In this document: positions 3,522 to 56,137 of the stretch, in pieces | How the letters are laid out: every line of letters starts with the position of its first letter | Numbering within the stretch: the stretch's first letter is position 1 | DNA from: a virus | Taxonomy: Duplodnaviria; Heunggongvirae; Uroviricota; Caudoviricetes | IMG/VR virus record: IMGVR_UViG_3300027365_000008 | Reading direction: 5' to 3' (one strand) | DNA length: 64,000 nucleotides | Notes under the pieces: model-generated | What the model saw: only the letters and a program-made list of their open reading frames with translations | What the model was told of the DNA's origin: nothing | The model's database searches: none | Made by a program: the position numbers and the translations under genes

Positions 3522-3927
3522 AAACGCAAATCAATCGGTAACACTGGAACAGATTTCAACGTTATGTTACGACAACATTCTCGGGTTGACGAATGAAGAT
3601 TATATAAACACTACTTACTGTGACATTGATGACGTGATAGGCTTTGTGACTAATGAATGTCCGAATGAAGAGAGTTATACAATAAGCGTTTCCTTTTCAG
3701 TTAAACATAATTCTGAATGTGTAGCCGATGTTCGGGTGAGCACTAATGACTTAAACGAGTACGATTACATCACCTTCTTCTTCAAAAATGAGAATCTGTT
3801 GCGTTTATTCGATTTTAAAAACATTGAGGAAGTGCCCGAAGAGTGCATCATCGGTGAGTTCTCTAGGAAAGAGGTGTTTAACCTTCTCCATACCATGACG
3901 GACGCCATTAAACTTCTCGATCTGTAA
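3493..3927 (+). CDS. hypothetical protein
   Basis: ORF in a packed array. Confidence 0.4.
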   Translation: MRLHSVMNSENANQSVTLEQISTLCYDNILGLTNEDYINTTYCDIDDVIGFVTNECPNEESYTISVSFSVKHNSECVADVRVSTNDLNEYDYITFFFKNENLLRLFDFKNIEEVPEECIIGEFSRKEVFNLLHTMTDAIKLLDL

Positions 3928-3945
3928 ACAGGAGATAGACGAAAC

Positions 3946-4605
3946 GTGGAAATCATCAAGACATTCAATGAAGTCGGCAGGTTGTATGATCGAGGGTTAA
4001 TACAGAAGGACGACTCGACATTCGAATGCCCCGTCTGTCACAAGGAATACAAATCGAAAGTGGCAGGCGAAAAGCATGTCGATAAGATGGACTGCTATAA
4101 GATGCAGGATGTCTTTATGGACACCGAATACGAAGCCATGGCTCACGAACTCTATATATCGGTAATAACTAATGAGAACCCCATGGCGAGGACCGGTATC
4201 CGGGTATTCCGCAAGGCCAAGTCGTATGGCCCGTTCCTCAAGTTCATCATCTTCACCAGCTACCATCAGGTGAGCGATAAGGGGCTGTACTACTCGTGGT
4301 TGAACGAGATCGTTGGGTTTCGTTACACCAACAAGATTCTATCCGAAGGTACCAATGAGGGGCGTCTTCGTGAGTATCGTCTTTGGCTACAGCGTCATCC
4401 CCAGTACATCGACAGCCAGACTTTTTTTGAACGCCATGCAGAGGCACTGCAAAATGATCAACAATTCCTGATACGTTCCCTAGAGAAGTCTCATATCGGC
4501 ATTCGCTATCTCATGTCAGCCCACGGCTTCGACTTTGATGGGGTTGTCGATGCCCTTGATCCGGGGTATTATATGAGACTACAGACATTAGTGGAGAAGG
4601 TGTGA
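3946..4605 (+). CDS. hypothetical protein with a C2H2-like zinc-binding motif
   Basis: CPVCHKEYKSKVAGEKHVDKMDC near the N-terminus. Confidence 0.45.
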   Translation: MEIIKTFNEVGRLYDRGLIQKDDSTFECPVCHKEYKSKVAGEKHVDKMDCYKMQDVFMDTEYEAMAHELYISVITNENPMARTGIRVFRKAKSYGPFLKFIIFTSYHQVSDKGLYYSWLNEIVGFRYTNKILSEGTNEGRLREYRLWLQRHPQYIDSQTFFERHAEALQNDQQFLIRSLEKSHIGIRYLMSAHGFDFDGVVDALDPGYYMRLQTLVEKV

Positions 4606-5057
4606 TGAGTCCCGCAAGTGAGGTTCGTGAGATACTGTTACCTTTGCTTCCCGAAGTGGTAACAACCAACATTGTAACTGCGTTGGAACCGTTGGAATCA
4701 TCTTTGGTAACCAAAGTTATCAGGTCCATCGATGAATCGACCATACGAAATCATCTTATAGATGTCTACATTATGGGTCCGACTCGTTCTTATGACGTTC
4801 CCGTAGCAAAGTTCCTATCCCGTGATATTCTCATTGAAATGGGAATCTCAAGGAGGACACAAGTAACACATGTTCCTATAACCAGATTCTCTGAACATGA
4901 GAGAGTGTTTGAGTATTTCCATCGCTTCAAACGAAACATTCCTGTTATCCACACAGACCTTCCATTTCAAGTGACACCAAACATTCCCTTTCATAAGCAT
5001 CACCTTGAAGATATAGCGGAAGATGTGGTTAATATGATTAAGATGATGATGCTGTGA
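4602..5057 (+). CDS. hypothetical protein
   Basis: ORF; start overlaps the upstream stop. Confidence 0.45.
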   Translation: MMSPASEVREILLPLLPEVVTTNIVTALEPLESSLVTKVIRSIDESTIRNHLIDVYIMGPTRSYDVPVAKFLSRDILIEMGISRRTQVTHVPITRFSEHERVFEYFHRFKRNIPVIHTDLPFQVTPNIPFHKHHLEDIAEDVVNMIKMMML

Positions 5058-5064
5058 GGACTTT

Positions 5065-5511
5065 ATGTATTTGGCACGATCAGAACTTATGAGGTTGCTG
5101 AGGGAGGACGCAGAGAAGTCTTTAGGTGCAATGTATAAAGACGTGATGGAAGGGAGGCTTCCATTTTCAATTTGTTTTGCATTTAGACGACTTTCTGAAT
5201 GTGTGGTAAATCCCTCCTATAACAACATGATGGCAGCTATTGATGGGAATGTAGTTGTTGATGCGAACCAAGCACGATGTTACGGAAATGAAAAACGGAT
5301 TACATACCGCTTAAAGGTAGTTGGGATTTACGGTAACTACGGCGGTGAGGTGGTTCTAACTTCTGTTCGTTCCGACCCTATAAAAAGGAGGACTGATCGT
5401 GAATGTGTTTATCGTTGGGTATCTGATAGTGGGTATGTTACGGTAACTTCTGATTCGGTTCAGACGATGGTTATGTCTTTGTGTGATCAATACTTCTTCT
5501 CGCAACTGTAA
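5065..5511 (+). CDS. hypothetical protein (paralog of the next gene)
   Basis: C-terminus YRWVSDSGYVTVTSDSVQTMVMSLCDQYFFSQL resembles the C-terminus of ORF 5590-5955. Confidence 0.45.
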   Translation: MYLARSELMRLLREDAEKSLGAMYKDVMEGRLPFSICFAFRRLSECVVNPSYNNMMAAIDGNVVVDANQARCYGNEKRITYRLKVVGIYGNYGGEVVLTSVRSDPIKRRTDRECVYRWVSDSGYVTVTSDSVQTMVMSLCDQYFFSQL

Positions 5512-5589
5512 GGAGGAATATATGGAGTTTAGCAAATCAGAATTGAATGATAAGATGGTAGAACTGATTGTGCGTTCGTTGGAAAACAA

Positions 5590-5955
5590 ATGGAACAAGA
5601 AAGAGGCTGTATGATAATTGAACGGTCTATCAAACGGGGTATTAAAAATGGATTCATCTATGACGATTTCATGGATCGATGTTCTGGTATATCAGTTCGC
5701 GTAAGAACATTTCATGGAAGGGGTAAGTTTAAGAAGTTGCTTATGGGTGTATATGACAGGAGGGGTGGAACCGGTTGCCTAAGAATATGGTTTTGTAAAT
5801 TTTTGGTACAATCAGAAGAAATAGACCATAGATCGAACGAAATCTATCTTTACAGGTGGGTTAAACAACGAAAAGAAGCTGTCATCTCTGACCCTCGAAT
5901 ACACGACATCTTTAAGGGGTTGTGCGACCGATACTTTGTTGAGAATCTGCTATGA
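5590..5955 (+). CDS. hypothetical protein (paralog of the previous gene)
   Basis: C-terminus YRWVKQRKEAVISDPRIHDIFKGLCDRYFVENLL matches the 5065-5511 product. Confidence 0.45.
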   Translation: MEQERGCMIIERSIKRGIKNGFIYDDFMDRCSGISVRVRTFHGRGKFKKLLMGVYDRRGGTGCLRIWFCKFLVQSEEIDHRSNEIYLYRWVKQRKEAVISDPRIHDIFKGLCDRYFVENLL

Positions 5956-6383
5956 ACATATCGTCCTATGCTGTTGAACGGTTCGTTAGAGAGATCATTG
6001 TGGTAGATGTATTCTGGCAGAATGTTAGCCGAGAACAACTGTATGTCGATCATAAACCGACTTCCATACGTCTGACGTTATTCTATCATTCACACAACAA
6101 TTTCACCCTCGGGTGTGATGTTCGTTATGACGATCCATCGTTGAACACGAATCTTCCTGTGTTTTCAGAGATCGAGATTGACTTGATTAGTAGAATAGTC
6201 TTTGCGCGATCTGAAGAAAAGACAGTGAGTTGGATAAAGCCGTTTTCCAACGATCTCCAACGGTATCTCAAATGGCACTGTAAACGGCGGGCTAACAACA
6301 CATTTAAGGTTTCCATCACCTCTGAAGACGTGATATCCTCCATACACGATAAGCATTTGTCTGACATGTTGCTGAACCTTTAA
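5952..6383 (+). CDS. hypothetical protein
   Basis: ORF; start overlaps the upstream stop. Confidence 0.4.
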   Translation: MNISSYAVERFVREIIVVDVFWQNVSREQLYVDHKPTSIRLTLFYHSHNNFTLGCDVRYDDPSLNTNLPVFSEIEIDLISRIVFARSEEKTVSWIKPFSNDLQRYLKWHCKRRANNTFKVSITSEDVISSIHDKHLSDMLLNL

Positions 6384-10858: not shown

Positions 10859-10980
10859 ACTCGCGAAGGGAATGCGCGGAGTGTGGTGTGCTCCACGACC
10901 GGGACGTGAACGCGGCCCGGAATATCCTCAGTCTTGCGCTCGGGCATGAGCGTCCAGAAGTGGGAATCCCCGTCCTTTAG
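10849..10980 (+). pseudogene. tnpB: tnpB 3' remnant (zinc-finger C-terminus)
   Basis: ECAECGVLHDRDVNAARNILSLALG, the typical TnpB C-terminus; different frame from the HNH ORF. Confidence 0.6.
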
Positions 10981-10993
10981 GGCGGGGAGGATG

Positions 10994-11310
10994 TCAAGAA
11001 GAGGTGATGCGTTTGGTCTTTCTCTCAAAGGAAGTTTGACCTAGTTCTTTGTAGCTATCTGTGATAGCCTTCTTAGCAATGACCACCGGGGGCTGGATGG
11101 CAACATGCGGGTAGAACTTGGCTTTGAACACCGAGAAGCGCAGCATCGGATACTCCATCTTCCAATGGATAGCAATCGCCAGCAGTTCGGGGGCATTATG
11201 ATTGGAACCGAAATCGTAAAAGATGACCTGCTTCTTGGTGCAGAAGTCAACGATTCCTTTGTAGTAAATGTCTTGTGTTTGGATTACATCAAGTAGGGCT
11301 TCTTGCATAG
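10994..11310 (-). CDS. hypothetical protein
   Basis: Minus-strand ORF abutting the IS right end. Start placed at the internal ATG (MQEALL...) preceded by gagg, because the longer ORF overlaps the next + gene. Confidence 0.35.
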
Positions 11311-17569: not shown

Positions 17570-18967
17570 ATGTCAGACACGATTAACAAGAAAGAGAAGA
17601 TTACCCTTGAGTATGCCCTGTCCGACAGGGAACTCTTTCTTAAAGCCCATTCTGTTCTGAAACCATCATACTTCGAACGACCGCTGGATGCGGTTGTCGA
17701 ATATGCGCTCGAATACTTTAGCAACTACCACAAGATTCCCGACTTCGATCTGATCGAGGCAGAAACCAACGTCTCGTTGAAATACCGAGATGTTGATGAT
17801 AGTGATCGTCAGTATGCGGTGGATGAGATTGAACACCACTGTGCCAAACAGGCAATGGTCGAAGCTATCCTGAAAAGTGCCGATCTGGTCAACGATGACG
17901 AAGTTGATTTGACTCAGGTACAGACCCTAGTCAGGGATGCCCTGATGGTCAAGATCGACAAGGTTCTGGGTACCGATCTATTTGAATCGCCGAGGGAACG
18001 TCGAGAACGCTCAGAACTTAACGTCGATGGGAAACTGATGGGCATTCCGGCTCTCGATGAGATTGCCGAAGAATGGCGGCGCGGCGAATTGTACTTCTTC
18101 GTTGCGGGCACATCCGTGGGTAAGTCTGTCATGCTGGGTAACGTGGCAGAACGGTTCTCATCACAGAAAGAAGACGTGATGATCTATTCGGTGGAGATGA
18201 ACGAAGACCTCTATAGCAAGCGTCTGGATTCTATCGTTACCGGAACGCCTATCAAGGAACCCGATGTCGATGAGATCGTTGACTATCTGGAATCCAATCG
18301 TGAAGATTATGGAAGGATTACAACCAAGAAGGTTAACACCAAGTTCGGAGTAGAAGACCTTCGGGCGCATCTACTCGAATACCACATGACCTACGGCAAG
18401 TATCCCGATGTCTGTATCATCGACTACATCGATATTTTTGGAACGGGTGCCGCTCAATCCAAGAACATGAACAAGTATGATATCGATGAACACAAAACGC
18501 ATTCTATTCGTGATCTTATGGATGAGTTTGGAATGCGAGGCTTCACGGCGGCACAGATGAACCGTGATGGCTATGGTCTGGCGGATATCGGACCTCAGCA
18601 CGTTCAAGGCGGTCTGTCCAAGCTGCAAGGCGCGGATGGGGCGTTCGCACTGGTCGCTACCGAAGAGGACTTGGAAAACGATCAGCTTCAGTGCAAAGGG
18701 ATCAAACTCCGTAACTCCAACAACAAACACAAGGTGATCACCCTGTATCGGTGTCCCAAGACATTGCGGGTTACCGATGAACCGTTAATCCCTAAGCAAA
18801 AGAACCCTCTTGACAAGCGTAAGGCAGACAAGGACAATGGGGGTCCGAGCAACACCCCCAAGAAAACGACATCCAAATCAACATCCAAAAAGGATTTGAT
18901 TAAGGATACGCCCAAGTCGGGTAAAGACAAACTGAAACAGGCGATGAGCCTAAGTCGAGGACTCTAA
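17570..18967 (+). CDS. replicative DNA helicase (DnaB family, T4 gp41-like)
   Basis: GIPALDEIAEEWRRGELYFFVAGTSVGKSVMLGN Walker A; DVCIIDYID Walker B; RecA-like core with a DnaB N-domain; 465 aa. Confidence 0.8.
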   Translation: MSDTINKKEKITLEYALSDRELFLKAHSVLKPSYFERPLDAVVEYALEYFSNYHKIPDFDLIEAETNVSLKYRDVDDSDRQYAVDEIEHHCAKQAMVEAILKSADLVNDDEVDLTQVQTLVRDALMVKIDKVLGTDLFESPRERRERSELNVDGKLMGIPALDEIAEEWRRGELYFFVAGTSVGKSVMLGNVAERFSSQKEDVMIYSVEMNEDLYSKRLDSIVTGTPIKEPDVDEIVDYLESNREDYGRITTKKVNTKFGVEDLRAHLLEYHMTYGKYPDVCIIDYIDIFGTGAAQSKNMNKYDIDEHKTHSIRDLMDEFGMRGFTAAQMNRDGYGLADIGPQHVQGGLSKLQGADGAFALVATEEDLENDQLQCKGIKLRNSNNKHKVITLYRCPKTLRVTDEPLIPKQKNPLDKRKADKDNGGPSNTPKKTTSKSTSKKDLIKDTPKSGKDKLKQAMSLSRGL

Positions 18968-19578
18968 TGCGAATTATCGGGTATGCGGCAGTCGATAGTG
19001 ATGATGTCATTTGTGGTGAAGTCAATGGTAGGATGCGGCAGACTTCTTACTTCGCCAAGCCGCTCACGAAAGAACTGGATAAGCAGTTCCTCATGAAACA
19101 CCTTCGTGGTTATTCGAGGGTGTTGTACGTGTGCGGTGAGAACACGTATAACGACTGTCAATTCATGTTGAGTCGTGATTCCTGCATGGCGTTGGTGACT
19201 TCCCCCAACGAAATCAAATTGTACAACCACACGACCTTTGTGGTTGACGAAGCGGAGTTGCACAACTCCGCTATTGGACGTGCAATGGATCAATACGATC
19301 CCGATGACCATGAATCGACTGCCAAGCTGGCTCACATTCTGGCATGGCACAATCGGCTTGATGCTATCGTGGTGCTTGGTGGCGTATCGGTTTACGATGC
19401 GTTCTCTGATATCTACACCGATTTCTATCTGTCAACCATTAATGGGTCGATCAGAAAAGAAGTGGATGGTGAACGAAAATCCATTCCTATGACACTTTGG
19501 CATGTGCGTGATCGCCTTCGGGCTAAGTATCCACTTGAAGTTTCGTTTGGCGATTACAAGGTGGTACATTATTCATAA
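18967..19578 (+). CDS. hypothetical protein
   Basis: ORF; ATG overlaps the helicase stop. Confidence 0.4.
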   Translation: MRIIGYAAVDSDDVICGEVNGRMRQTSYFAKPLTKELDKQFLMKHLRGYSRVLYVCGENTYNDCQFMLSRDSCMALVTSPNEIKLYNHTTFVVDEAELHNSAIGRAMDQYDPDDHESTAKLAHILAWHNRLDAIVVLGGVSVYDAFSDIYTDFYLSTINGSIRKEVDGERKSIPMTLWHVRDRLRAKYPLEVSFGDYKVVHYS

Positions 19579-19792: not shown

Positions 19793-19799
19793 AGGAGCA

Positions 19800-21746
19800 A
19801 TGATGAGTTCATACGATCTTCAATACCAAGCGGCACTCAATCGTATTCTTCAATATGGATACGATTCTGATGACAGAACCGGTGTCGGAACCCGAAAGAT
19901 GTTCGATGTCAACTTCAATGATGATCTGCGTCATGAAGTGGCTGACGAATATAAACTACCGGCACTAACCATTCGCAAGGTCTTCCCCCGCACGGCATTC
20001 TATGAACTGATGTGGATGCTCAACGGGATTACCAACGTCGATTGGCTATATGAACGAAACATCAACATCTGGAATGGAAACAGCACTCGGGAGTTCCTTG
20101 ATTCTCGTGGTCTGTATCATATCCGTGAAGGGCATATCGGTCGCGGCTATGGCTATCAGATTCGCAACTTCAATGGGGTCGATCAACTCGAAGAACTGTT
20201 CAAGGGACTGTATTACAATCCTAACGGTAGGCGACATCTAATCTCATTCTGGAATCCCGGCGATCTGAAAGAGATGGCTCTGCCTCCATGTTTCGTTGCG
20301 GGAACACAGGTTGCTCTCGCTACAGGGGAATATAAGGCCATCGATTCGATTTCGGTAGGTGATTCGGTCTTAACATCATCCGGCGAATATCATCAGGTCT
20401 ACAATGTGATGAAAACCCCTTATGACGGGGATTTTGTAACTATCAAAGCTACGGGAATTCCAAACACGACATGTACTCCAAACCATCTCTTTCTGGTCAA
20501 GGACAAAGGATATGTTAAGGCTTCTTCCATCAACGTAGGTGACTTTGTGCTTGTTAGAGGGGCAAGCGAACACGAAAATATTCCTTCTTTCGAAATCAAG
20601 AAACATTCTAAAGCGTGGGGGGTAGAATCAGAACGAACGGAAGAAATATTTAGATTGGATTCCGAAGAGAAATGGTTTATGCTTGGGTACTTCGTAGGTA
20701 ATGGGTATGTGACATCTAATCGAGAGGGAGCAAAGCCAGACCGAGGAACGATATCAATACCTCTACATAAAGAAAATGATATAATCAATAGGTTTGGTGG
20801 TGTTATTAATCTCTATGTCAAGAATAGAACACAATCCATGGTGGCTATGGAATTCAGTTCTCGTAGATGGTCGACTGTCTTTAGAGAATTCGGGAGCAAA
20901 GCGCATGGGAAATTCATCCCTACGTGGGTTGAAGAATCTCCTAAGTGGGCAATTGAATCTTTCCTTGAAGGATATATCGCAGCAGATGGATGCATACTAG
21001 GAAATTCGTATTCGATAACGACGGTATCGCCATCATTGGCATACGGGGTTCAACGGTTATTCACTAAAATGGGTAAATCGGCTCGGGTCAGTAAACAAGT
21101 TCGACCAAAGACTACGATCATAGAGGGCAGAATTGTCAACCAAAGAGACACGTATACAATATCCGTAAGGATTGATGAGACAAAACGAAGATCATTCAAT
21201 TTCATCCATAATGAGAGTGGGATGTGGTGTAAGGTGGCTAAAGTTACCCACGAGAAGTCGAATGAACACGATGGGTTTGTGTATAACCTTAGCGTAGATA
21301 CTGATCACACGTACACTGCGAACAACATAGTCAATCATAATTGCCATTTATTGTACAATTTCGTTGTGACCGGGGAATATCTCAATCTGAAGTTCTATCA
21401 GCGCAGTGCCGATATGATCCTCGGGGTTCCGACAAACATCTGTTTTGCGACATTCTTCCTGACACTGGTCGCCAAATCACTTGGTTTCAAGGTCGGCGAA
21501 GTGGCCCATTCGATTGGGGATGCTCATATCTATTCCAATCATATTGAAGTCGCCGAAGAACTCGTTAATCGAGATGCCTTCGATCAACCCGTCTTCTCGA
21601 TGTGGGTTCCCAAATACGATCCGACGCAGGGAATCGAAAGCGTGCTGGCTCCTTATCGTGATGAAAACGCATGGGAAACGTATGTCCACCTGACCTACAA
21701 ATCTCATCCGCCCATTGACAAGTCACGGCTGACCATGGCAGTATAA
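19800..21746 (+). CDS. thyA: thymidylate synthase ThyA interrupted by an in-frame intein
   Basis: ThyA motifs (GYQIRNF, ALPP-C-H..YNFVV, DAHIY); a 351-aa insertion begins directly after ALPP and ends VNHN before the catalytic Cys. Confidence 0.85.
   Translation: MMSSYDLQYQAALNRILQYGYDSDDRTGVGTRKMFDVNFNDDLRHEVADEYKLPALTIRKVFPRTAFYELMWMLNGITNVDWLYERNINIWNGNSTREFLDSRGLYHIREGHIGRGYGYQIRNFNGVDQLEELFKGLYYNPNGRRHLISFWNPGDLKEMALPPCFVAGTQVALATGEYKAIDSISVGDSVLTSSGEYHQVYNVMKTPYDGDFVTIKATGIPNTTCTPNHLFLVKDKGYVKASSINVGDFVLVRGASEHENIPSFEIKKHSKAWGVESERTEEIFRLDSEEKWFMLGYFVGNGYVTSNREGAKPDRGTISIPLHKENDIINRFGGVINLYVKNRTQSMVAMEFSSRRWSTVFREFGSKAHGKFIPTWVEESPKWAIESFLEGYIAADGCILGNSYSITTVSPSLAYGVQRLFTKMGKSARVSKQVRPKTTIIEGRIVNQRDTYTISVRIDETKRRSFNFIHNESGMWCKVAKVTHEKSNEHDGFVYNLSVDTDHTYTANNIVNHNCHLLYNFVVTGEYLNLKFYQRSADMILGVPTNICFATFFLTLVAKSLGFKVGEVAHSIGDAHIYSNHIEVAEELVNRDAFDQPVFSMWVPKYDPTQGIESVLAPYRDENAWETYVHLTYKSHPPIDKSRLTMAV
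20289..21341 (+). other. intein with a LAGLIDADG homing endonuclease domain inside thyA
   Basis: Block A CFVAGTQVAL; two LAGLIDADG-like motifs (LGYFVGNGYV, LEGYIAADGC); C-terminal IVNHN followed by +1 Cys, which is the ThyA catalytic cysteine. Confidence 0.75.
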
Positions 21747-25329: not shown

Positions 25330-28300
25330 ATGTCAACGATTATGGTTACCAAGCGTGATGGAAGCGTGGAAGACTTCAAGGTTGAGAAGGTTCGCAAATG
25401 CATCAACTGGGCATGTGAAGGTCTTCAAGTCAATCCTCTCGCATTGGAATCCCGTTTCAATGAATATCTCCAAACCGAAGTAACCACCAAAGTCATTCAA
25501 GACAGCCTCGTGTTCTGTGCGCGTTCCCTAGCCACGGCGGCTGATTCGGATTTCGTGTTCGTCGCGGGTCGCCTGATGACCATGAACATCTGGAAAGAGA
25601 CGGGCATCTATGAGAAGCCCTTCTATGACGTGCTGACCGATGGCGTGGTTCCCTATGCTATCGATAACACAATTCTTTCGAAATACACCAAAGCCGAGAT
25701 CGAGGAACTGGGTTCCTATATGGTTCAGGAACGTGATCTGAATCATAGCTTTGGTAGCGTTCTGACGGCGATCAACAAGTACCTGCTTCCTAATGAAGCC
25801 ATCCAGCCGATGATCATGGCATCCTCGATGATCATTGCCAGTGTGGAGGATCAGGAGATTCGTGTTGCGAAGGCCAAAGAGTTCTATGATTCTTTGTCAA
25901 ATCGTGAACTTTCTTTGGCAACTCCGTGGTGGGGTAACCTGCGCAGCGATGGCAATATCAGTTCGTGTTTCATCATCAAGCCGAGTGATAGCCTCGAATC
26001 GATCTTCGCTAATGTGACTCGTGCCGCAATGACTTCCAAGGCGGGTGGTGGCCTTGGCGTGTCTATGGCAGCTATTCGTGCCCAAGGCTCTCCGGTCGGT
26101 GGGCGTCCCAACTCGTCCAAAGGCGTATTCAATTGGACGAAGATTTTCAATGATGTTGCGATTGCGGTTGACCAGTGTTTTCATCCTGATACACTAGTCA
26201 CCACTCAGAATGGATTCAAGGCAATCAAAGACATTATTCCCCGCGAGGATCGTGTTCTCACCGACAACGGGAAGTTTAACCGGGTAGAAGAAAAGATCAT
26301 GTATGAGCAAAGCGAGCCGATGTATCGTGTTCGCACAGCACATGATCTTGTCGATACCTTTGTAACCGGGGAACATCCCGTTAAGGCTCTTACCAATCTG
26401 GATACCCTTGAACATGGTTACTTGGATGTGAAGGACTTGGAGATTGGTGATTATCTGGGTCAGAAGATTCCGTCTTATACGATTGAATCGGAGTTGACCC
26501 ATGAAGAACTGTACGCTTATGGTACGTCGCTCATGCTTCCGGGGGCAAATCACATCGATTCTCGATTCCTCCATATTGAACCTGAGAAACAGATGTCGAT
26601 TATCTTTGGTATGATCGATGCCAAAGGATCGGCTGACAATGCAAATGAACTGATCATCGAATCTGCGAATCTGGCTCATGAGATTCGATATCTGCTTCTC
26701 CGTAATGGAATCCCAGTAAAATCAGAATACGTCGGGGGATCATTCAAACTCACTATCCAAGCCACTGGCAAGCTGGCTCTTATGCTTGGTGTCAACGATG
26801 TCGAAGAGGTTGACTGGATCGTTTCGGATGGGTATATTTTCAGCCCCATCACTGAGTTTGAGGACGGGATTGAATACAATTCAGAAGTTTACGATCTGCG
26901 TGTGCAGAGTATTCCGTCTTATCAAACACATGCGTTCATGGCTCACAACGGCGGCAAGCGGGCAGGAGCCATTACCGTCGAACTCCCGATCTGGCACCGT
27001 GACATCGAAGGGTTCCTTGAGATTCAACATGAAACCGGCGATCTGCGCACCAAGTGCTTTGACATCTTTCCGCAAGTCGGGATGCATGATCTGTTCATGA
27101 AAATGGATGCGGCTGATGGTGAAAACGATTGGCATACATTCTGTCCGTATGAAGTGAAACAGGTTCTCGATATCCAACTGGATGAAGTTTACGGCAAGGA
27201 GTTCGAAAAGGCGTACAAGAAGTGTGTCAAAGCCTATGAGAAGGGTGATCTGAAGAACGTCGCCGTGTACAAGACACGTAACCTGATCAAGTCGATGATG
27301 CGTACCCAGTTCGAATCTGGTCTTCCGTATGTGGCCTATCTGGACACCATCAATGATGACAACCCGAATGACCATGAAGGCACGATTCCTTCCGTCAACC
27401 TTTGTGTCGCTCCCGAGACTTTGGTGCTGACTGACAAGGGCAATCTTCCTATCGTAACACTGAAAGATCAGTGGGTTAACGTCTGGAATGGACACGAGTT
27501 TAGCGAGGTCTTGGTTGAAAAGACGGCGGACCATGCTCATCTGCTGCATGTAGAAACGGAAGGCGGTCGTTCACTGGATGCGACGGACTATCACAAATGG
27601 TATCGCGTCGTCGATGGTGAAATGGAAATGGTTCGGACCTTTGAACTGAAACCGGGCGATGAAGTTTGTGTAGTCGATAACTATCCCATTGATCGTATCA
27701 AGTCTATTGATGACCAATACCGGTGGTCTGATGTATACTGTTTCAATGAACCGAAACGGCATCTGGGCGTATTCAATGGCATTATCACCGGGCAATGCAA
27801 TGAGTCATTCAGTGTCGTCAAGCCGGATGTCTATGGTCACTCGTGCAATCTGATCTCTATCGTCGCCGGTCGAGTTAAGGATTACGAACATCTGGAATAT
27901 CTGGCAGGTCTTGCGACTCGAATGCTTGACAATGGGATCGAACTGACCAAAGACCCCATGGACATTGCCGGTGCCCATAATGAGCGTTACCGCACGATTG
28001 GTATTGGCATCCAAGGTCTTCACGATTGGCTTGCCAAGAATCGCAAGATGTACAACGATACTAAATTCATCGGTGAGTTTGCAGAGACGATTCAATTTGG
28101 TGCGGTGAAAGAGAGCATCAAACTAGCTAAAGAACGCGGCGCGTATCCGGCGTACTCGGGTTCTCGGTGGGATACCGGTAAGCAGATTGCCAAGTATCGC
28201 AAGCACAGTCGTCGTGGTCTTGACTGGAATTCTTTGCAAACTGGACTTGATCAATATGGCATCCGCAATAGCCAATTGACTTCTCCGGCACCGAACACAA

Positions 28301-28695
28301 CCACGTCCATTTTCATGGATGCAGGTCCGGGCGTGATGCCGTGCTATGGTGGGTTCTATCTCAAGGACAATACCAATGGGGAGTTCCCGGTTGCCGGTAT
28401 GTATCTGAAAGAGAATCCGTTGTGCTATGCCAAGAATGCGGCTCGCTATGATCATGAAACACTCGTCAATGCGGTTGCCGAAATCCAGAAGTTCACGGAT
28501 GCGGGCATTTCGAGCGAGTATATCTTTGACCACAACAAAGAGGGCTTCAGTGCGAAAGAACTGTATGATCTGATTCATCTGGCATGGCGTAAGAAGACCA
28601 AGGCGGTCTATTACATTCGTAACATCAAGAAAGGTTCTAACCTCGAAGAAGAGGTCGGCATGAGCCAAGCATCATGCGAAGGTTGCGCAAACTAA
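25330..28695 (+). CDS. nrdA: class Ia ribonucleotide reductase alpha subunit NrdA carrying two inteins
   Basis: ATP cone (VTKRDGSVEDF); SSCFII (Cys225 region); GGKRAGAITVELPIWH; NLC-N-E active-site loop; C-terminal CEGC. Two in-frame insertions carry intein blocks. Confidence 0.85.
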   Translation: MSTIMVTKRDGSVEDFKVEKVRKCINWACEGLQVNPLALESRFNEYLQTEVTTKVIQDSLVFCARSLATAADSDFVFVAGRLMTMNIWKETGIYEKPFYDVLTDGVVPYAIDNTILSKYTKAEIEELGSYMVQERDLNHSFGSVLTAINKYLLPNEAIQPMIMASSMIIASVEDQEIRVAKAKEFYDSLSNRELSLATPWWGNLRSDGNISSCFIIKPSDSLESIFANVTRAAMTSKAGGGLGVSMAAIRAQGSPVGGRPNSSKGVFNWTKIFNDVAIAVDQCFHPDTLVTTQNGFKAIKDIIPREDRVLTDNGKFNRVEEKIMYEQSEPMYRVRTAHDLVDTFVTGEHPVKALTNLDTLEHGYLDVKDLEIGDYLGQKIPSYTIESELTHEELYAYGTSLMLPGANHIDSRFLHIEPEKQMSIIFGMIDAKGSADNANELIIESANLAHEIRYLLLRNGIPVKSEYVGGSFKLTIQATGKLALMLGVNDVEEVDWIVSDGYIFSPITEFEDGIEYNSEVYDLRVQSIPSYQTHAFMAHNGGKRAGAITVELPIWHRDIEGFLEIQHETGDLRTKCFDIFPQVGMHDLFMKMDAADGENDWHTFCPYEVKQVLDIQLDEVYGKEFEKAYKKCVKAYEKGDLKNVAVYKTRNLIKSMMRTQFESGLPYVAYLDTINDDNPNDHEGTIPSVNLCVAPETLVLTDKGNLPIVTLKDQWVNVWNGHEFSEVLVEKTADHAHLLHVETEGGRSLDATDYHKWYRVVDGEMEMVRTFELKPGDEVCVVDNYPIDRIKSIDDQYRWSDVYCFNEPKRHLGVFNGIITGQCNESFSVVKPDVYGHSCNLISIVAGRVKDYEHLEYLAGLATRMLDNGIELTKDPMDIAGAHNERYRTIGIGIQGLHDWLAKNRKMYNDTKFIGEFAETIQFGAVKESIKLAKERGAYPAYSGSRWDTGKQIAKYRKHSRRGLDWNSLQTGLDQYGIRNSQLTSPAPNTTTSIFMDAGPGVMPCYGGFYLKDNTNGEFPVAGMYLKENPLCYAKNAARYDHETLVNAVAEIQKFTDAGISSEYIFDHNKEGFSAKELYDLIHLAWRKKTKAVYYIRNIKKGSNLEEEVGMSQASCEGCAN
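26176..26949 (+). other. intein 1 in nrdA (258 aa, LAGLIDADG-type) with a non-canonical +1 residue
   Basis: Block A CFHPDTLV; block B TGEHPVKALT; IIFGMIDAKGS LAGLIDADG-like; block G VYDLRVQ...HAFMAHN; the next extein residue is Gly, not Cys/Ser/Thr. Confidence 0.65.
27403..27795 (+). other. intein 2 in nrdA (131-aa mini-intein) ending in Gln
   Basis: Inserted at NL|C-N-E; block A CVAPETLVLT; block G VYCFNEPKRHLGVFNGIITGQ followed by +1 Cys (the active-site Cys439 equivalent). Confidence 0.65.
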
Positions 28696-44240: not shown

Positions 44241-45128
44241 TCATTTGAATCCAAATAGACTACGCTTCACTTCGTTTTTTCTCGATTGGATATCGAATCC
44301 CATACCCTTGAGGTAGTTGTTAATCGTCTTGTTGGCTTTCTCCCATTGTTTGTCGTAATCGATAATGATGTCATCCATGAAATCGGGAAGTGTCATGGCG
44401 TCAACCGGATATGCGATGTACTTGGACTTCGGATGCTTGATGTACACCACACCGACCTTATCACCGGGCATGATCTGACGATCTGTTTCAGAACACATTG
44501 AATTGTAAAACATCGAGGCGCGAACCGTATAATGAAATCCATGTTGGCTCCCGGTTTGCTCAAAGATGTCAAGACACTTCTTCAGAGTGTTGCACCCTGA
44601 CGGTGATGCAATCTCCTTCAAAGGCGCTTGCTTATATTCCTGTTTGAACTGCTTCACCATGCGACTCAATTGGGCAGCATCCTTCCCGTCGATAATCGCT
44701 TCCACCACTTCAGTCAGGAATTGCTTCAGGAGAACCGGGGTGTTGCTCTTCCTGATCTCAAGCCCCATCAGCTTCAACGAGTCGGTCGGCTTCCCTTCCT
44801 TGTTGACCACATGAGCAGCGTACCGCTTCTTGGTCAGGAAGAACGACTTATCCGATATGATCTCTCGATCTGTCTGAATAACGTCCTTGCGGTCCTCGGG
44901 GACATTGAAGGCATCCATGATGAACTCGGGGAAAAGAGAATTGACATGCTGACCAATCTCATCCGCGATTTCACAGACCTCATTCACATCAGCATCCGCG
45001 TCGAAGAACGGGAGTTTCATGTAACACGAGTCCGTGTCCCCGGCAATCCCCATGTCAGCATGATAGCTTCGATAAACGAATTTATCCCCCTCTTTGAAAA
45101 GGGCTGGAAATTCAATCTTATTGCTCAA
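44241..45128 (-). CDS. family-B DNA polymerase, C-terminal cistron (gp43B-like: palm motif C plus thumb)
   Basis: IAGDTDSCYM (motif C) and KKRYAAHV (KKRY). TTG start preceded by AGGAG with a 6-nt spacer; overlaps the 43A stop by 11 nt. Confidence 0.75.
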   Translation of the reverse strand: MSNKIEFPALFKEGDKFVYRSYHADMGIAGDTDSCYMKLPFFDADADVNEVCEIADEIGQHVNSLFPEFIMDAFNVPEDRKDVIQTDREIISDKSFFLTKKRYAAHVVNKEGKPTDSLKLMGLEIRKSNTPVLLKQFLTEVVEAIIDGKDAAQLSRMVKQFKQEYKQAPLKEIASPSGCNTLKKCLDIFEQTGSQHGFHYTVRASMFYNSMCSETDRQIMPGDKVGVVYIKHPKSKYIAYPVDAMTLPDFMDDIIIDYDKQWEKANKTINNYLKGMGFDIQSRKNEVKRSLFGFK

Positions 45129-46893
45129 GACATTCTCCTGCTTCTTTAATTGTATCGTTAACCATCTTCATCTGTGCTTTCGAAATGATCTGTCCAGTCA
45201 ACGTGATTGACTTACCGAGATCGATGTCAAAGAATCGGAAGTGGTTATTGGTGATGGCACCATAGGCGCTGTTGATGACGATCTTGCTTGCCATCTGGTA
45301 GAGGTCGTACAGGGCTTCTTTTTCCTTGTCTCCAGCCTTAGCGGCTTCCTTCATCATTACTTTGTAATGCTTTCGAGTCTCGAAACCATTGCGAATGACT
45401 CGTGACACGAACCCATCTTTTCCGGTGAAGATGCATCCGTTGGCAGAGATACAGTACCCCTGTTCACGAATGAACTCCATCGCTTCCTTGCCGGTGAAGT
45501 GGAAGTCTTCGCCCTTCAGGTGGCGATAATCCACATGTTGTCCGACCGCTTGCAATACCACTTCATCCTCGCTTTCGGTTACGATCTTGATGTAATCCTG
45601 AAAGCGATTCTTGGCTTGGAAGATGTAGGTTTCTGGACTGATACCAAGCATCATCATCACGGACGGATACAGACTGGTCAAGTCATACGATGCCATCCAT
45701 TCGTGTCGCCCGGTCATCGTCTCATAGACGTAACCCCCTTCCAAGGTTTCCTTGTCATGGTCCTTCTTGTCAGGCACCACCACTAGCTGATTGGGATCAT
45801 GAGTATGGCAATAGTTGACCACCAGTGATTCAATCATCTTTACGGTACCCAGAACGTCAGGGAACCGAATTGTAGCTTTGCGTCCCAACTGAATCAGAAG
45901 TTCGATGATGCGCTTCTTGTCATTCAGCTTCTTGAGCAATCGGGCATCCTGAAGGCTGTATTCAAAGAATGTCTGCGGGTCATTCCGATAGAGTTCACCG
46001 AGGTTATCATCATAATCGGTTTTCTTCTCGCCCAGTTCTTCCTCGGCAATAGCATTCAGGGCATAGGACCGCTTGACTTCATACGTGAACTTCTTATAGA
46101 TGTCCAGCATGTCGAGGTGAAGGCGTCCGACGAGTTCCCATTTGGTGAAGTCATTTCCAAAAGCATCGACCTTCTCAGACGACTTTGCCAAGAAATCATC
46201 ACGACAGAGTAGCGAGGGTGCCGATGCTCCGAAGTGTTTAGTAGCCCGCGCCATGATGTAGGGAATATCGAACTTATCCCCGTTCCAAGCGGTTAGAATA
46301 TCGATATCCTTGATGACATCGGCAAAGCACAATAGAAGATCACGCTCATTGCGCGTGCGATGGATTATGACAGGATATTCGCCATCCGGGTCTTTCAGAG
46401 TGACTTTGTTGAGTTCCGGGGTATCAAACATCAACATATGATATTCGCCTTTAGCGGTATCAAACAGGCTGATGGCGTTGATCTCCCCAAAAGGATTCTC
46501 GGGTCTTGGATAACCTAGTCCGTCCTTCAGGTTGAAATCGACCTCAATATCAAAGAATCCGATGTGAACCGGAACTTCCGTATCAGTGGAATGGTAGGTA
46601 TCAGAAAGATGTTTGTATTCGGGAGCGATGTCCGATTCAAACAGATCGTTGCGATGACTTTTGAAGTCTTTGAACTCCTTGAAGGACTCGAAATCGACTC
46701 GCTTCACCGGGTCACCGAAGATACTGACGGCTTCCGGGGTGGCGGACTTCATGTAGCAGTAATAGGGGGCCGGAACCACATTCGTAAAGAGTTCACCATT
46801 ACGATCTCGTTCCCAGCACCAAACTTCGTCTCGAATACGAGTTGCGTCAATGTACATCAAATCTCCTTCATTCAGATAGAAAAGGGAGGACAC
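45118..46893 (-). CDS. family-B DNA polymerase, N-terminal cistron (gp43A-like: 3'-5' exonuclease plus motifs A and B)
   Basis: Exo I FFDIEV; Exo II WNGDKFDIPY; motif A YDLTSLYPS; motif B KIVINSAYG. Confidence 0.85.
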   Translation of the reverse strand: MSSLFYLNEGDLMYIDATRIRDEVWCWERDRNGELFTNVVPAPYYCYMKSATPEAVSIFGDPVKRVDFESFKEFKDFKSHRNDLFESDIAPEYKHLSDTYHSTDTEVPVHIGFFDIEVDFNLKDGLGYPRPENPFGEINAISLFDTAKGEYHMLMFDTPELNKVTLKDPDGEYPVIIHRTRNERDLLLCFADVIKDIDILTAWNGDKFDIPYIMARATKHFGASAPSLLCRDDFLAKSSEKVDAFGNDFTKWELVGRLHLDMLDIYKKFTYEVKRSYALNAIAEEELGEKKTDYDDNLGELYRNDPQTFFEYSLQDARLLKKLNDKKRIIELLIQLGRKATIRFPDVLGTVKMIESLVVNYCHTHDPNQLVVVPDKKDHDKETLEGGYVYETMTGRHEWMASYDLTSLYPSVMMMLGISPETYIFQAKNRFQDYIKIVTESEDEVVLQAVGQHVDYRHLKGEDFHFTGKEAMEFIREQGYCISANGCIFTGKDGFVSRVIRNGFETRKHYKVMMKEAAKAGDKEKEALYDLYQMASKIVINSAYGAITNNHFRFFDIDLGKSITLTGQIISKAQMKMVNDTIKEAGECLEQ

Positions 46894-54715: not shown

Positions 54716-56137
54716 CTACCCTACATCGCGCATGTAGATCGTCTTGCAGTCTTCCAGTTCAATATCTGAAGCGCCCTCGGATGTAATCACCAGCAGGTTT
54801 CGACATTCCATCGGAAGCGCCGATTCCAGTGATTGGTGGGGGATATAGCCATCCGTGAAAATGATGAGTGCGTTGATAGGCTCACCATCATCCAGTTTCT
54901 CGCCAGCATATTCAGCCAACGGGGCCATGTCCGTTCCACCCCCGCCAATCCAATCGAGACTGACGTTACTGAAGTCGTCACCGTCCTCGGAGTTGTAGAT
55001 ACCGATAACGTGATAGCTGGTATCACATGTCACCAGATGCACGGTCCATGACTCAAATTGATCGAGAATACCCTTAAGTTCGGCAGCGGCTTCCTTGAGT
55101 TCACGTTCGCTCATCGAACCTGACGTGTCAACACCCCACACCAGTTCAATCTTGCTCCCTGTCAAACTCGGGAACACCACACCACCTTCACCCGTTCGAC
55201 GGGACAGACGATTGTAGGTCGGGCGTTCCTTAGTGGAGGCAACGATGTTTTCGTTAAGTTCATCTTTCCAGTTAACGCGGGGCTTCGCTAAGTCTTGGAA
55301 AGAACGCACCATGTCGCCTTCATGCTCACCAATACTTTTTGTGGCACTGGCGTTCGCAACAGCAGCCGCAGCTTCCTGACGGTTCATGCCCTTTTCACCG
55401 TCGCTTTGCTCACGCCCCGAAACGCTATCCATGGGCATCTGACCAGCCGGAGCGCCACCCGCGCTTCCTTGGCCCTTCGATGGCTTGTCCTTTCCTTGTT
55501 GCCCGGCTTGACCTTCACCGTCATCAGGGCGCTGACCGCCGCCGTGGGCTTCGCACGCTTTCTGCGCGTCACCATCGTTCTCTTCAAGCAACAGATGGTA
55601 AATCTCATCAGATGACATGCCCACGAAGCGTTCTTGATATAGAACGAACTCGGGCCGTTCTACATAAAGACGAAATCGCTCATCATGCGAAACACCATCG
55701 TTCTCAGTCTTGTACGTACCTGAACAGAACAAATTGATGTTGTAATCCGTGGCGATGTTCCACAATTCAGGATTGTAACCGGATTCCATCTGACGCCCGG
55801 AGTGTTCCTGAAAGATATGAAGAATCTCATGGAGCAACACGAACGCCCGCTGTTCGTTGTTTTCCAAACGATTCATCCAGAATACCGGGTTAATGAAGAT
55901 CATGTTTTTGCCATTGACCGGCATCGCGCCAGCCGTGGGCAGATCGGGCGACCAGAAATACACACACTGAAACATCAGATGCGCCATGAGCGGGGATGCA
56001 ATCGCAATGCTCGCTCGTGCTTCCGAAAAGGTTTCCATCCATTCAGGCTGAATGTCCTTGTCTTTGATTAGAGTCGGCATCCGGGTCAGCATGACCTCGC
56101 CGATGCCATCCTCTTTCTTATCAGTCTGTGTGGTCAT
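54716..56137 (-). CDS. VWA-domain protein with an N-terminal DUF2201-like HExxH domain (CobT-like partner of a MoxR ATPase)
   Basis: LLHEILHIFQEH; MIDAS motif WGVDTSGSMS; G/Q/A-rich linker. Confidence 0.65.
   Translation of the reverse strand: MTTQTDKKEDGIGEVMLTRMPTLIKDKDIQPEWMETFSEARASIAIASPLMAHLMFQCVYFWSPDLPTAGAMPVNGKNMIFINPVFWMNRLENNEQRAFVLLHEILHIFQEHSGRQMESGYNPELWNIATDYNINLFCSGTYKTENDGVSHDERFRLYVERPEFVLYQERFVGMSSDEIYHLLLEENDGDAQKACEAHGGGQRPDDGEGQAGQQGKDKPSKGQGSAGGAPAGQMPMDSVSGREQSDGEKGMNRQEAAAAVANASATKSIGEHEGDMVRSFQDLAKPRVNWKDELNENIVASTKERPTYNRLSRRTGEGGVVFPSLTGSKIELVWGVDTSGSMSERELKEAAAELKGILDQFESWTVHLVTCDTSYHVIGIYNSEDGDDFSNVSLDWIGGGGTDMAPLAEYAGEKLDDGEPINALIIFTDGYIPHQSLESALPMECRNLLVITSEGASDIELEDCKTIYMRDVG

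Follow-up and report, generated by a model that had tools for sequence, protein, structure and literature searches.

The stretch of DNA analysed here, hereafter the window, is 64,000 nucleotides (nt) of the IMG/VR virus record IMGVR_UViG_3300027365_000008 (Caudoviricetes) and carries a thymidylate synthase gene, thyA, that is interrupted by an intein. The ThyA precursor is encoded on the plus strand by a single unbroken frame (19800..21746; 1947 nt, 648 codons and a stop) and has a mass of about 74.0 kDa. An AGGAG Shine-Dalgarno sequence lies at 19793-19797. Its distance from the first ATG is a mere 2 nt, so translation of ThyA may in fact begin at the next ATG (19803), a start that the length of the database copy of the protein (P0001), 647 amino acids (aa), would fit. 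The N-extein (19800..20288, plus strand; 163 aa) ends with LKEMALPP and so has proline as its -1 residue. The C-extein (21342..21746, plus strand; 134 aa and the stop) runs from CHLLYNF to RLTMAV. The DNA reads CTG CCT CCA / TGT TTC GTT at the 5' junction (20280-20297) and GTC AAT CAT AAT / TGC CAT at the 3' junction (21330-21347), and the precursor protein reads ALPP/CFVAGTQV...IVNHN/CHLLYNF, a slash marking a junction here and below. An earlier sequence-only reading had placed an insert of 351 aa between ALPP and CHLLYNF. This placement was exact; the end coordinate given there, 21344, includes the codon of the +1 Cys.

The host protein was recognised as ThyA even before removal of the insert. 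The Pfam model Thymidylat_synt (PF00303) matched the precursor with an E value of 6e-65 (219 bits, cut-off 24.3) in two segments on either side of the insert, and the NCBIfam model TIGR03284 (thym_sym) scored 174 bits against a cut-off of 108 with the insert still in place. Joining the flanks gave a ThyA of 297 aa and 34.6 kDa with the junction peptide ...EMALPPCHLLYNF.... The spliced product aligned with solved thymidylate synthases without a gap through ...NPGDLKEMALPPCHLLYNF... (ALPPCH), the best alignments being those with 5by6 (E 7e-54) and the T4 enzyme 1tis (E 6.5e-47). Its DRTG, QRSAD and PTN motifs align with the solved sequences, and GDAHIY and the C-terminal MAV were also found. In T4 Td, the equivalent motif, MALPPCHMFYQF, contains Cys156. 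The Cys of the P-C-H motif is the nucleophile of thymidylate synthases (C146 in E. coli, C195 in human). Since removal of the insert restores a gap-free thymidylate synthase, the +1 Cys of the intein (TGC, 21342..21344, plus strand) is the ThyA nucleophile, in agreement with the sequence-only reading. It would serve as the acceptor in trans-thioesterification and, after splicing, as the catalytic nucleophile of ALPPCH.

The insert (20289..21341, plus strand; 1053 nt, 351 aa, 39.4 kDa) is a canonical class-1 intein with a nested two-motif LAGLIDADG domain. A search with the full precursor found 557 proteins at E <= 1e-5. From the matches of this search, together with phage PS1, 117 related inteins were extracted and aligned. 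The block A nucleophile is Cys1 (TGT, 20289..20291, plus strand), and Cys1-Phe2 is invariant in all 117 family members. Block B reads T63-P-N-H66 (20475..20486, plus strand), with Thr conserved in 117 and His in 116 of the 117; the residue that follows the His is Leu67 in the window copy and Pro in 112 of the family. Blocks F-G (21279..21341, plus strand), VYNLSVDTDHTYTANNIVNHN, hold the penultimate His350 and the terminal Asn351, whose codon is AAT (21339-21341). Of the related inteins, 116 are followed by a +1 Cys and one (P0098) by a +1 Ser. The window intein holds all the invariant or near-invariant splicing positions of the alignment, namely C1, F2, T63, H66, N346, H350 and N351. A lack of conserved splicing residues on closer alignment, which would have refuted the sequence-only reading, was not found in the alignment of 117 inteins. 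The Pfam models Intein_splicing (E 5e-13 in the precursor, 9e-14 for the insert alone) and LAGLIDADG_3 (E 1e-10 and 2e-11, respectively) both matched above the gathering score, and several Hint models matched the insert weakly. With such scores for the ThyA, intein and LAGLIDADG models, the observation is far beyond chance. The GC content is 0.421 in the intein versus 0.466 and 0.481 in the exteins, and the GC content at third codon positions (GC3) is 0.40 versus 0.50 and 0.55. The low GC and GC3 point to a foreign origin of the intein, but are statistically only suggestive, as 8% of same-size windows are equally low.

The homing endonuclease (HE) domain occupies 20655..21188 (plus strand), approximately residues 123-300. 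We built an AlphaFold2 model of the intein on a 58-sequence alignment, and it was confident throughout (mean pLDDT 94.3, pTM 0.92). In the model, the nested domain consists of two alpha-beta-beta-alpha-beta-beta-alpha halves, and the LAGLIDADG helices (residues 126-138 and 219-233) are each followed by beta hairpins. The top Foldseek matches in the PDB were HE-containing inteins: Tli VMA (7qsu, E 1e-18), then PI-SceI, PI-PkoII (2cw7) and PI-PfuI (1dq3). The inner domain matched I-DmoI, with a target-normalised TM score of about 0.6, and the HINT part matched intein and hedgehog HINT structures. The best PDB match of the intein by sequence was PI-PkoII (2cw7). The two motifs are LGYFVGNGY (block C, 20682..20708, plus strand) and LEGYIAADG (block E, 20964..20990, plus strand), and Pfam, the fold model and Foldseek bear out the earlier assignment to a LAGLIDADG-type intein with two motifs. 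The acid at the end of the LAGLIDADG helix is absent from the first motif, where Asn138 (AAT, 20700-20702) stands at the position of the catalytic Asp, and is present in the second as Asp233 (GAT, 20985-20987). Lys208 (20910..20912, plus strand) belongs to a block D-like K-x-I-P motif, with K in 115 and P211 in all 117 of the family. Judged by the block C and block E acids alone, endonuclease activity would be doubtful. The sequence-only reading had called the intein a probably active homing endonuclease. This was an overstatement and is not established, given Asn138 in block C and the fact that activity cannot be judged from sequence.

Asn138 occurs in 33 of the 117 relatives, 29 of them ThyA-site inteins (the window copy and that of PS1 among these), and most of them fall together in a large, deep portion of the tree. 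The ratio of identity in the HE domain to that in the HINT domain is 1.12 for the Asn subtype versus 1.09 for the Asp subtype, and the HE domain is 174 versus 175 aa long. The Asn subtype keeps Lys208, Pro211, Asp233, Thr245, Ser247, Gln255 and Arg281. Six sequences are neither Asp/Asp nor Asn/Asp at the two acid positions, and their HE domains are mostly shortened (median 152 aa). Two further residues, Pro158 and Lys161 (20760..20771, plus strand), covary with Asn138. Pro158 is found in 93% of the Asn subtype and in none of the Asp subtype, which has Asn or Ala there; Lys161 is found in 90% and in none, respectively, with Asp or Gln in the Asp subtype. In the model, positions 158 and 161 fall where the second beta strand gives way to the following helix. 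In I-CreI, Q47 and R51 occupy this position, and by analogy it is a place of peripheral active-site residues. Judging from these comparisons, Asn138 marks an old and conserved subtype and not a recent decay. One of the two catalytic centres appears to have been remodelled as a unit (Asn138, Pro158, Lys161) and then maintained, while the other (Asp233, Lys208) is canonical. A binding-competent enzyme with asymmetric (nicking) or otherwise altered catalysis would fit this pattern better than decay. Mutants of the PI-SceI D218N type reportedly have a strand-specific phenotype; our literature search found no paper on PI-SceI D218N, and we do not use this as evidence.

Junction analysis of the best 120 of the 557 proteins showed that one intein lineage occupies three insertion sites. 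Sixty-six metagenomic clusters, including bifunctional DHFR-TS proteins, have the intein at the ThyA catalytic Cys (LPP/CF...HN/CH). Another 15 clusters (P0061, P0063, P0068-P0074, P0076, P0078, P0079, P0081, P0084 and P0098) have it at a second ThyA site (GP/CF...HN/CYGxQWR), where the +1 Cys stands in for the usual Val or Ile of GP(V/I)YGxQWR and would persist as a scar. The remaining site, found in 35 clusters, is motif IV of C5 cytosine methyltransferases (GFP/CF...HN/CQxFSxAG), and the intein again lies directly before the nucleophilic Cys of the enzyme. In a bootstrapped neighbour-joining tree the methyltransferase (Dcm) inteins are monophyletic (95%). The bootstrap was too weak to give a direction of transfer from ThyA to Dcm or the reverse, with 53% for Dcm plus a DHFR-TS subgroup and 15% for monophyly of the ThyA-site inteins.

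Among 50,697 phage records, 3,852 had a ThyA match, and a homologous intein-bearing ThyA was present in Aeromonas phages PS1 and PS2 only. Both records annotate the gene plainly as thymidylate synthase. The PS1 gene lies at 3764..6022 of locus L001, and the thymidylate synthase of PS1 and PS2 is a 752-aa precursor whose 337-aa intein is not annotated as such. Within Ferozepurvirus, PS1 and PS2 carry the Asn-subtype intein, and ACP1, pAEv1810 and AVP1 have an uninterrupted thyA at 83-85% nucleotide identity. This presence and absence independently supports mobility of the Asn subtype. The nearest intein-less ThyA among cultured phages was that of Cobetia phage Carin-5 (50.7% identity). The -1 position in ACP1 is Ala instead of Pro (LTA/CH), and the Carin-5 ThyA reads PCAH instead of PCH; both may be target-site variants. 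The E. coli jumbo phages JNE01, TH47, ph0011 and UE-S1 carry the methyltransferase version (GFP/C...HN/CQxFS). Identity to the Dcm-hosted relatives was 29-32% in the jumbo phage and cyanobacterial records and about 35% on average overall. Several phage methyltransferase records with the intein are labelled hypothetical or simply methyltransferase. A scan of 185,579 GTDB species-representative genomes with a single peptide pattern gave three full-length relatives, all in cyanobacterial Dcm proteins (Microseira, Calothrix). It gave no cellular ThyA intein, a weak negative, as the single pattern would miss the motif of the window intein itself. Neither the gene nor its 24-kb surroundings gave a relative in a megablast search of the 50,697 phage records. 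The lone match of the 24-kb stretch was an exact one of 36 nt between 10963..10998 of the window and Ralstonia phage RpY1 (MN996301.1, 337-372), which looks like chance. An IMG/VR scan with the spliced ThyA returned only relatives of 34-38% identity, none with useful context.

We consider it probable that the element is a class-1 intein enclosing a LAGLIDADG domain, that it separates Pro163 of a phage ThyA from the catalytic Cys, and that it splices and homes in the following way. The anatomy, the family membership, the fold and the insertion site are shown by the analysis; we infer splicing and homing, and also the idea of a nickase, splicing on the basis of the established class-1 pathway (PMC4031507). 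The 74-kDa precursor would be inactive for dTMP synthesis: its nucleophile sits at the splice junction, and 351 residues interrupt the active-site strand. The folded intein would perform an N-S acyl shift at Pro163-Cys164, in which Cys1 turns the Pro-Cys peptide bond into a thioester. The N-extein would then be transferred to the +1 Cys (Cys515), the future ThyA nucleophile, and Asn351 (precursor Asn514) would cyclise. A final S-N shift would give a 297-aa ThyA with the native ALPPCH, and the 39-kDa intein would be released. As DNA, the element would spread, or would once have spread, by homing into the intein-less thyA of co-infecting phages. The freed intein is the candidate homing enzyme, and its expected target spans CCTCCA/TGCCAT. 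The intein-less target sequence would be GGCGATCTGAAAGAGATGGCTCTGCCTCCA/TGCCATTTATTGTACAATTTCGTTGTGACC, and the 60-bp joined site is GGCGATCTGAAAGAGATGGCTCTGCCTCCATGCCATTTATTGTACAATTTCGTTGTGACC. The endonuclease would be expected to keep its binding to the DNA target, and its cutting may be asymmetric (nickase) or weak and not a standard double-strand cleavage. A wider proposal, which we put forward tentatively and regard as rather unlikely in full, is that one lineage has specialised on the Pro-Cys nucleophile motif of ThyA and of C5 cytosine methyltransferase, two unrelated pyrimidine-C5 enzymes. It would splice efficiently despite the -1 Pro, and its Asn138/Pro158/Lys161 subtype would be a natural LAGLIDADG nickase that drives phage homing.

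Several observations weigh against the reading of the element as a splicing and homing intein. Natural and engineered inteins generally fail with a proline at -1 (PMC6486613). The window copy departs from the consensus at 6 of 48 highly conserved columns, while the family median is 2; its departures include P67L beside the block B His and W140Y (Trp in 107 of the 117). Asn138 replaces a block C acid that is Asp in 79 of the 117 relatives and Glu in PI-PkoII. The endonuclease of the PhoVMA intein, which is without the block C and block E aspartates, is experimentally inactive, and grafting the acids back restores cleavage (PMC8966425). The nearest relative of the window intein is only about 40% identical, and no intein-less near relative of the window phage was found by megablast against the phage records or in the IMG/VR scan; therefore, nothing shows recent mobility of the window copy. 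For this copy itself, the evidence of mobility and activity is weaker than for the Asn subtype. An alternative that we think has a real chance of being correct, even though we lean away from it, is the following: splicing is normal, the endonuclease is catalytically dead, and the intein is a stranded parasite late in the homing cycle, kept because imprecise loss destroys ThyA. The Asn at the block C acid position, the precedent of PhoVMA, the divergence of the window copy at conserved columns beyond that of most relatives, and the absence of any sign of its recent movement in the megablast and IMG/VR comparisons all speak for such a parasite. Yet 29 deeply diverged clusters share the Asn state, and their HE domains match those of the Asp subtype in conservation and length; the truly degenerate members, without both acids, have shorter domains (152 versus about 175 aa). 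The covariation of Asn138, Pro158 and Lys161 also resembles coordinated change and not random decay, and the presence of the Asn-subtype intein varies among Ferozepurvirus phages at 83-85% thyA identity.

The other alternatives concern the splicing step or the insert as a whole. It seems improbable to us that the intein has been recruited as a post-translational switch, with splicing and dTMP synthesis gated by redox or metal through Cys1 and the +1 Cys, as has been suggested for other conditional inteins. In favour of this, the nucleophile of the enzyme coincides with the splice-junction Cys, so that there is no activity before splicing, and the same phage has an intein at the thiyl-radical Cys of NrdA. 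DnaB inteins are documented to splice conditionally with oxidation or zinc (PMC6195587, PMC7360933). However, no sequence feature specifically points to regulation, and the patchy spread among related phages and the composition suggestive of foreign origin suit a selfish element better than a fixed regulator. A loss of splicing, which would make thyA a disguised pseudogene or a source of cleavage products only, is very improbable, although the -1 Pro, the Leu67 in place of a near-invariant Pro after the block B His and the further deviations from the consensus would be in keeping with it. The frame of 1947 nt is intact, every essential splicing residue is present, the exteins retain all ThyA hallmark motifs and the C-terminal MAV, and the structure model is confident throughout. 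The -1 Pro is the norm of the family, being present in 113 of the 117 members; because so many members share it, the family must cope with it and is, on the alignment, evidently adapted to it. We give almost no credence to two further readings of the insert, as a chimera of the assembly or as a bacterial intein-like (BIL) domain. The sequence is known from metagenomes only, but JGI, Logan and ENA all record the identical protein, the contigs being 158 kb and 56 kb long. By sequence, a BIL domain (2lwy, E 8e-6) ranks second among the PDB matches of the N-terminal part, but BIL domains are without a +1 nucleophile and occur in variable proteins and not at conserved enzyme sites (PMC4031507), whereas the insert is followed by a +1 Cys, lies in the ThyA active site and has an HE domain nested inside. 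We reject both the BIL-domain and the chimera readings.

We compared the intein with known systems. HE-containing class-1 inteins (Tli VMA 7qsu/7qss, PI-SceI, PI-PkoII 2cw7, PI-PfuI 1dq3) share with it the HINT fold, the two-motif LAGLIDADG domain, Cys1, the T..H of block B, the terminal His-Asn and the +1 Cys. The ThyA intein is, however, only 13-18% identical to them, is smaller (351 aa) and is without large accessory or DNA-recognition domains; its ThyA host, its -1 Pro and its block C Asn paired with Pro158 and Lys161 set it further apart. The closest non-ThyA relatives, about 35% identical along the full intein, are the inteins in motif IV of C5 methyltransferases (phages, Microseira, Calothrix and many metagenomic Dcm proteins). 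The CF...HN/C ends and the placement between Pro and a nucleophilic Cys are shared, but their host fold is unrelated, 33 of the 35 have the canonical block C Asp, and they form their own clade. Inteins in ThyX (mycobacteriophages, bacteria) likewise interrupt a dTMP-making enzyme (PMC5050341, PMC4760082, bioRxiv 10.1101/2025.01.02.630785). Nevertheless, ThyX (COG1351 / IPR003669) is not a homologue of ThyA (PF00303), the site is another one, and the mechanism works without a cysteine nucleophile.

The T4 td gene resembles the window thyA in its gene family, in belonging to a large phage and in holding a self-splicing mobile element with a homing endonuclease; it differs in that splicing takes place at the RNA level and the endonuclease, I-TevI, is of the GIY-YIG type. 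The sequence-only reading had set the group I intron of T4 td against the intein. The comparison is true as far as the intron goes, but the two insertions are not equivalent in site. The T4 record shows a two-piece coding sequence with I-TevI inside. As the frame of exon 1 meets its stop at codon 184, the intron must begin some 27 codons downstream of Cys156, and therefore the T4 intron and the window intein do not share a site. At the gathering threshold, Rfam gave no group I intron and no RNA family anywhere in the window.

In replication and nucleotide-metabolism enzymes, inteins as a rule occupy catalytic motifs (PMC5050341). Our literature search turned up no description of an intein in ThyA or DHFR-TS, and the published thymidylate synthase inteins that we found were all in ThyX. 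C5 methylase appeared as an intein host in the literature found only in lists of actinophage hosts. Automated JGI names such as "thymidylate synthase/intein/homing endonuclease" exist. The element is thus of a known type, in a host protein for which we found no published intein description, and the sizeable family to which it belongs is likewise undescribed in the literature found. Three details are unusual: the -1 Pro, the conserved Asn subtype of block C, and the kinship with Dcm inteins at a Pro-Cys motif. With this element, the folate-dependent thymidylate synthase joins the intein-invaded enzymes. It also provides another clean case in which the catalytic nucleophile of the host is the nucleophile of the splice junction, so that dTMP synthesis would be strictly dependent on splicing. 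A family that resides beside a -1 Pro could supply proline-tolerant inteins for protein engineering, and the search for a natural nickase of the LAGLIDADG type has a testable lead in the conserved Asn variant of the first catalytic centre. The gene lengths and protein clusters of phage ThyA are affected as well, since records like that of PS1 carry a plain thymidylate synthase annotation.

The thyA gene lies downstream of a DnaB-like helicase and a weakly DHFR-like open reading frame (ORF), and is followed by lysozyme, RNA ligase, NrdA and NrdB genes; the region is a replication and nucleotide-metabolism module of a large phage. The DHFR-like ORF (18967..19578) starts at the last base of the helicase ORF (end coordinate 18967). 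Its DHFR match is below threshold (E 9e-4; 19 bits, cut-off 25), and it has no PHROG match. As a DHFR partner of ThyA, it would have to be very divergent.

The NrdA ORF (25330..28695) has two inserts. The first (26176..26949) is a HINT or intein-like insert of 258 aa in loop 2 of ribonucleotide reductase (AVDQ/CFHPDT...TGEH...HAFMAHN/GGKRAGA). Blocks A, B and G are intact, and the +1 residue is Gly (GGC) of the native Q-G-G motif, which leaves the insert without a +1 nucleophile. The C-terminal junction was readable in 138 representatives of its same-site homologues, of which 99 have Gly and 39 have Ser at +1. Both junctions were resolved in 135; the Gly group of these (96) keeps Cys1 in 94 and His-Asn in 92, and clusters phylogenetically. 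The only precedent known to us for a missing +1 nucleophile is the splicing of type-A BIL domains by aminolysis (PMC4031507). This 258-aa insert may be more novel than the ThyA intein. The second insert (27403..27795) is a mini-intein of 131 aa (SVNL/CVAPETLV...GIITGQ/CNESF) that ends in Gly-Gln and not in His-Asn, directly before the Cys of the N-L-C-x-E motif. This Cys corresponds to the thiyl-radical Cys439 of E. coli NrdA, so that in this phage inteins stand at a catalytic cysteine in ThyA and in NrdA alike.

Two further loci were noted on the minus strand. The DNA polymerase ORF at 45118..46893 matches positions 9-563 of the 856 of PHROG 262 only, or about the first two thirds, and the ORF at 44241..45128 overlaps it by 11 nt. 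The polymerase gene (44241..46893) may be split or frameshifted. The 473-aa ORF at 54716..56137 matches the HNH endonuclease family of PHROG 1314 (E 2e-67) and is possibly another mobile-element gene in the replication module.

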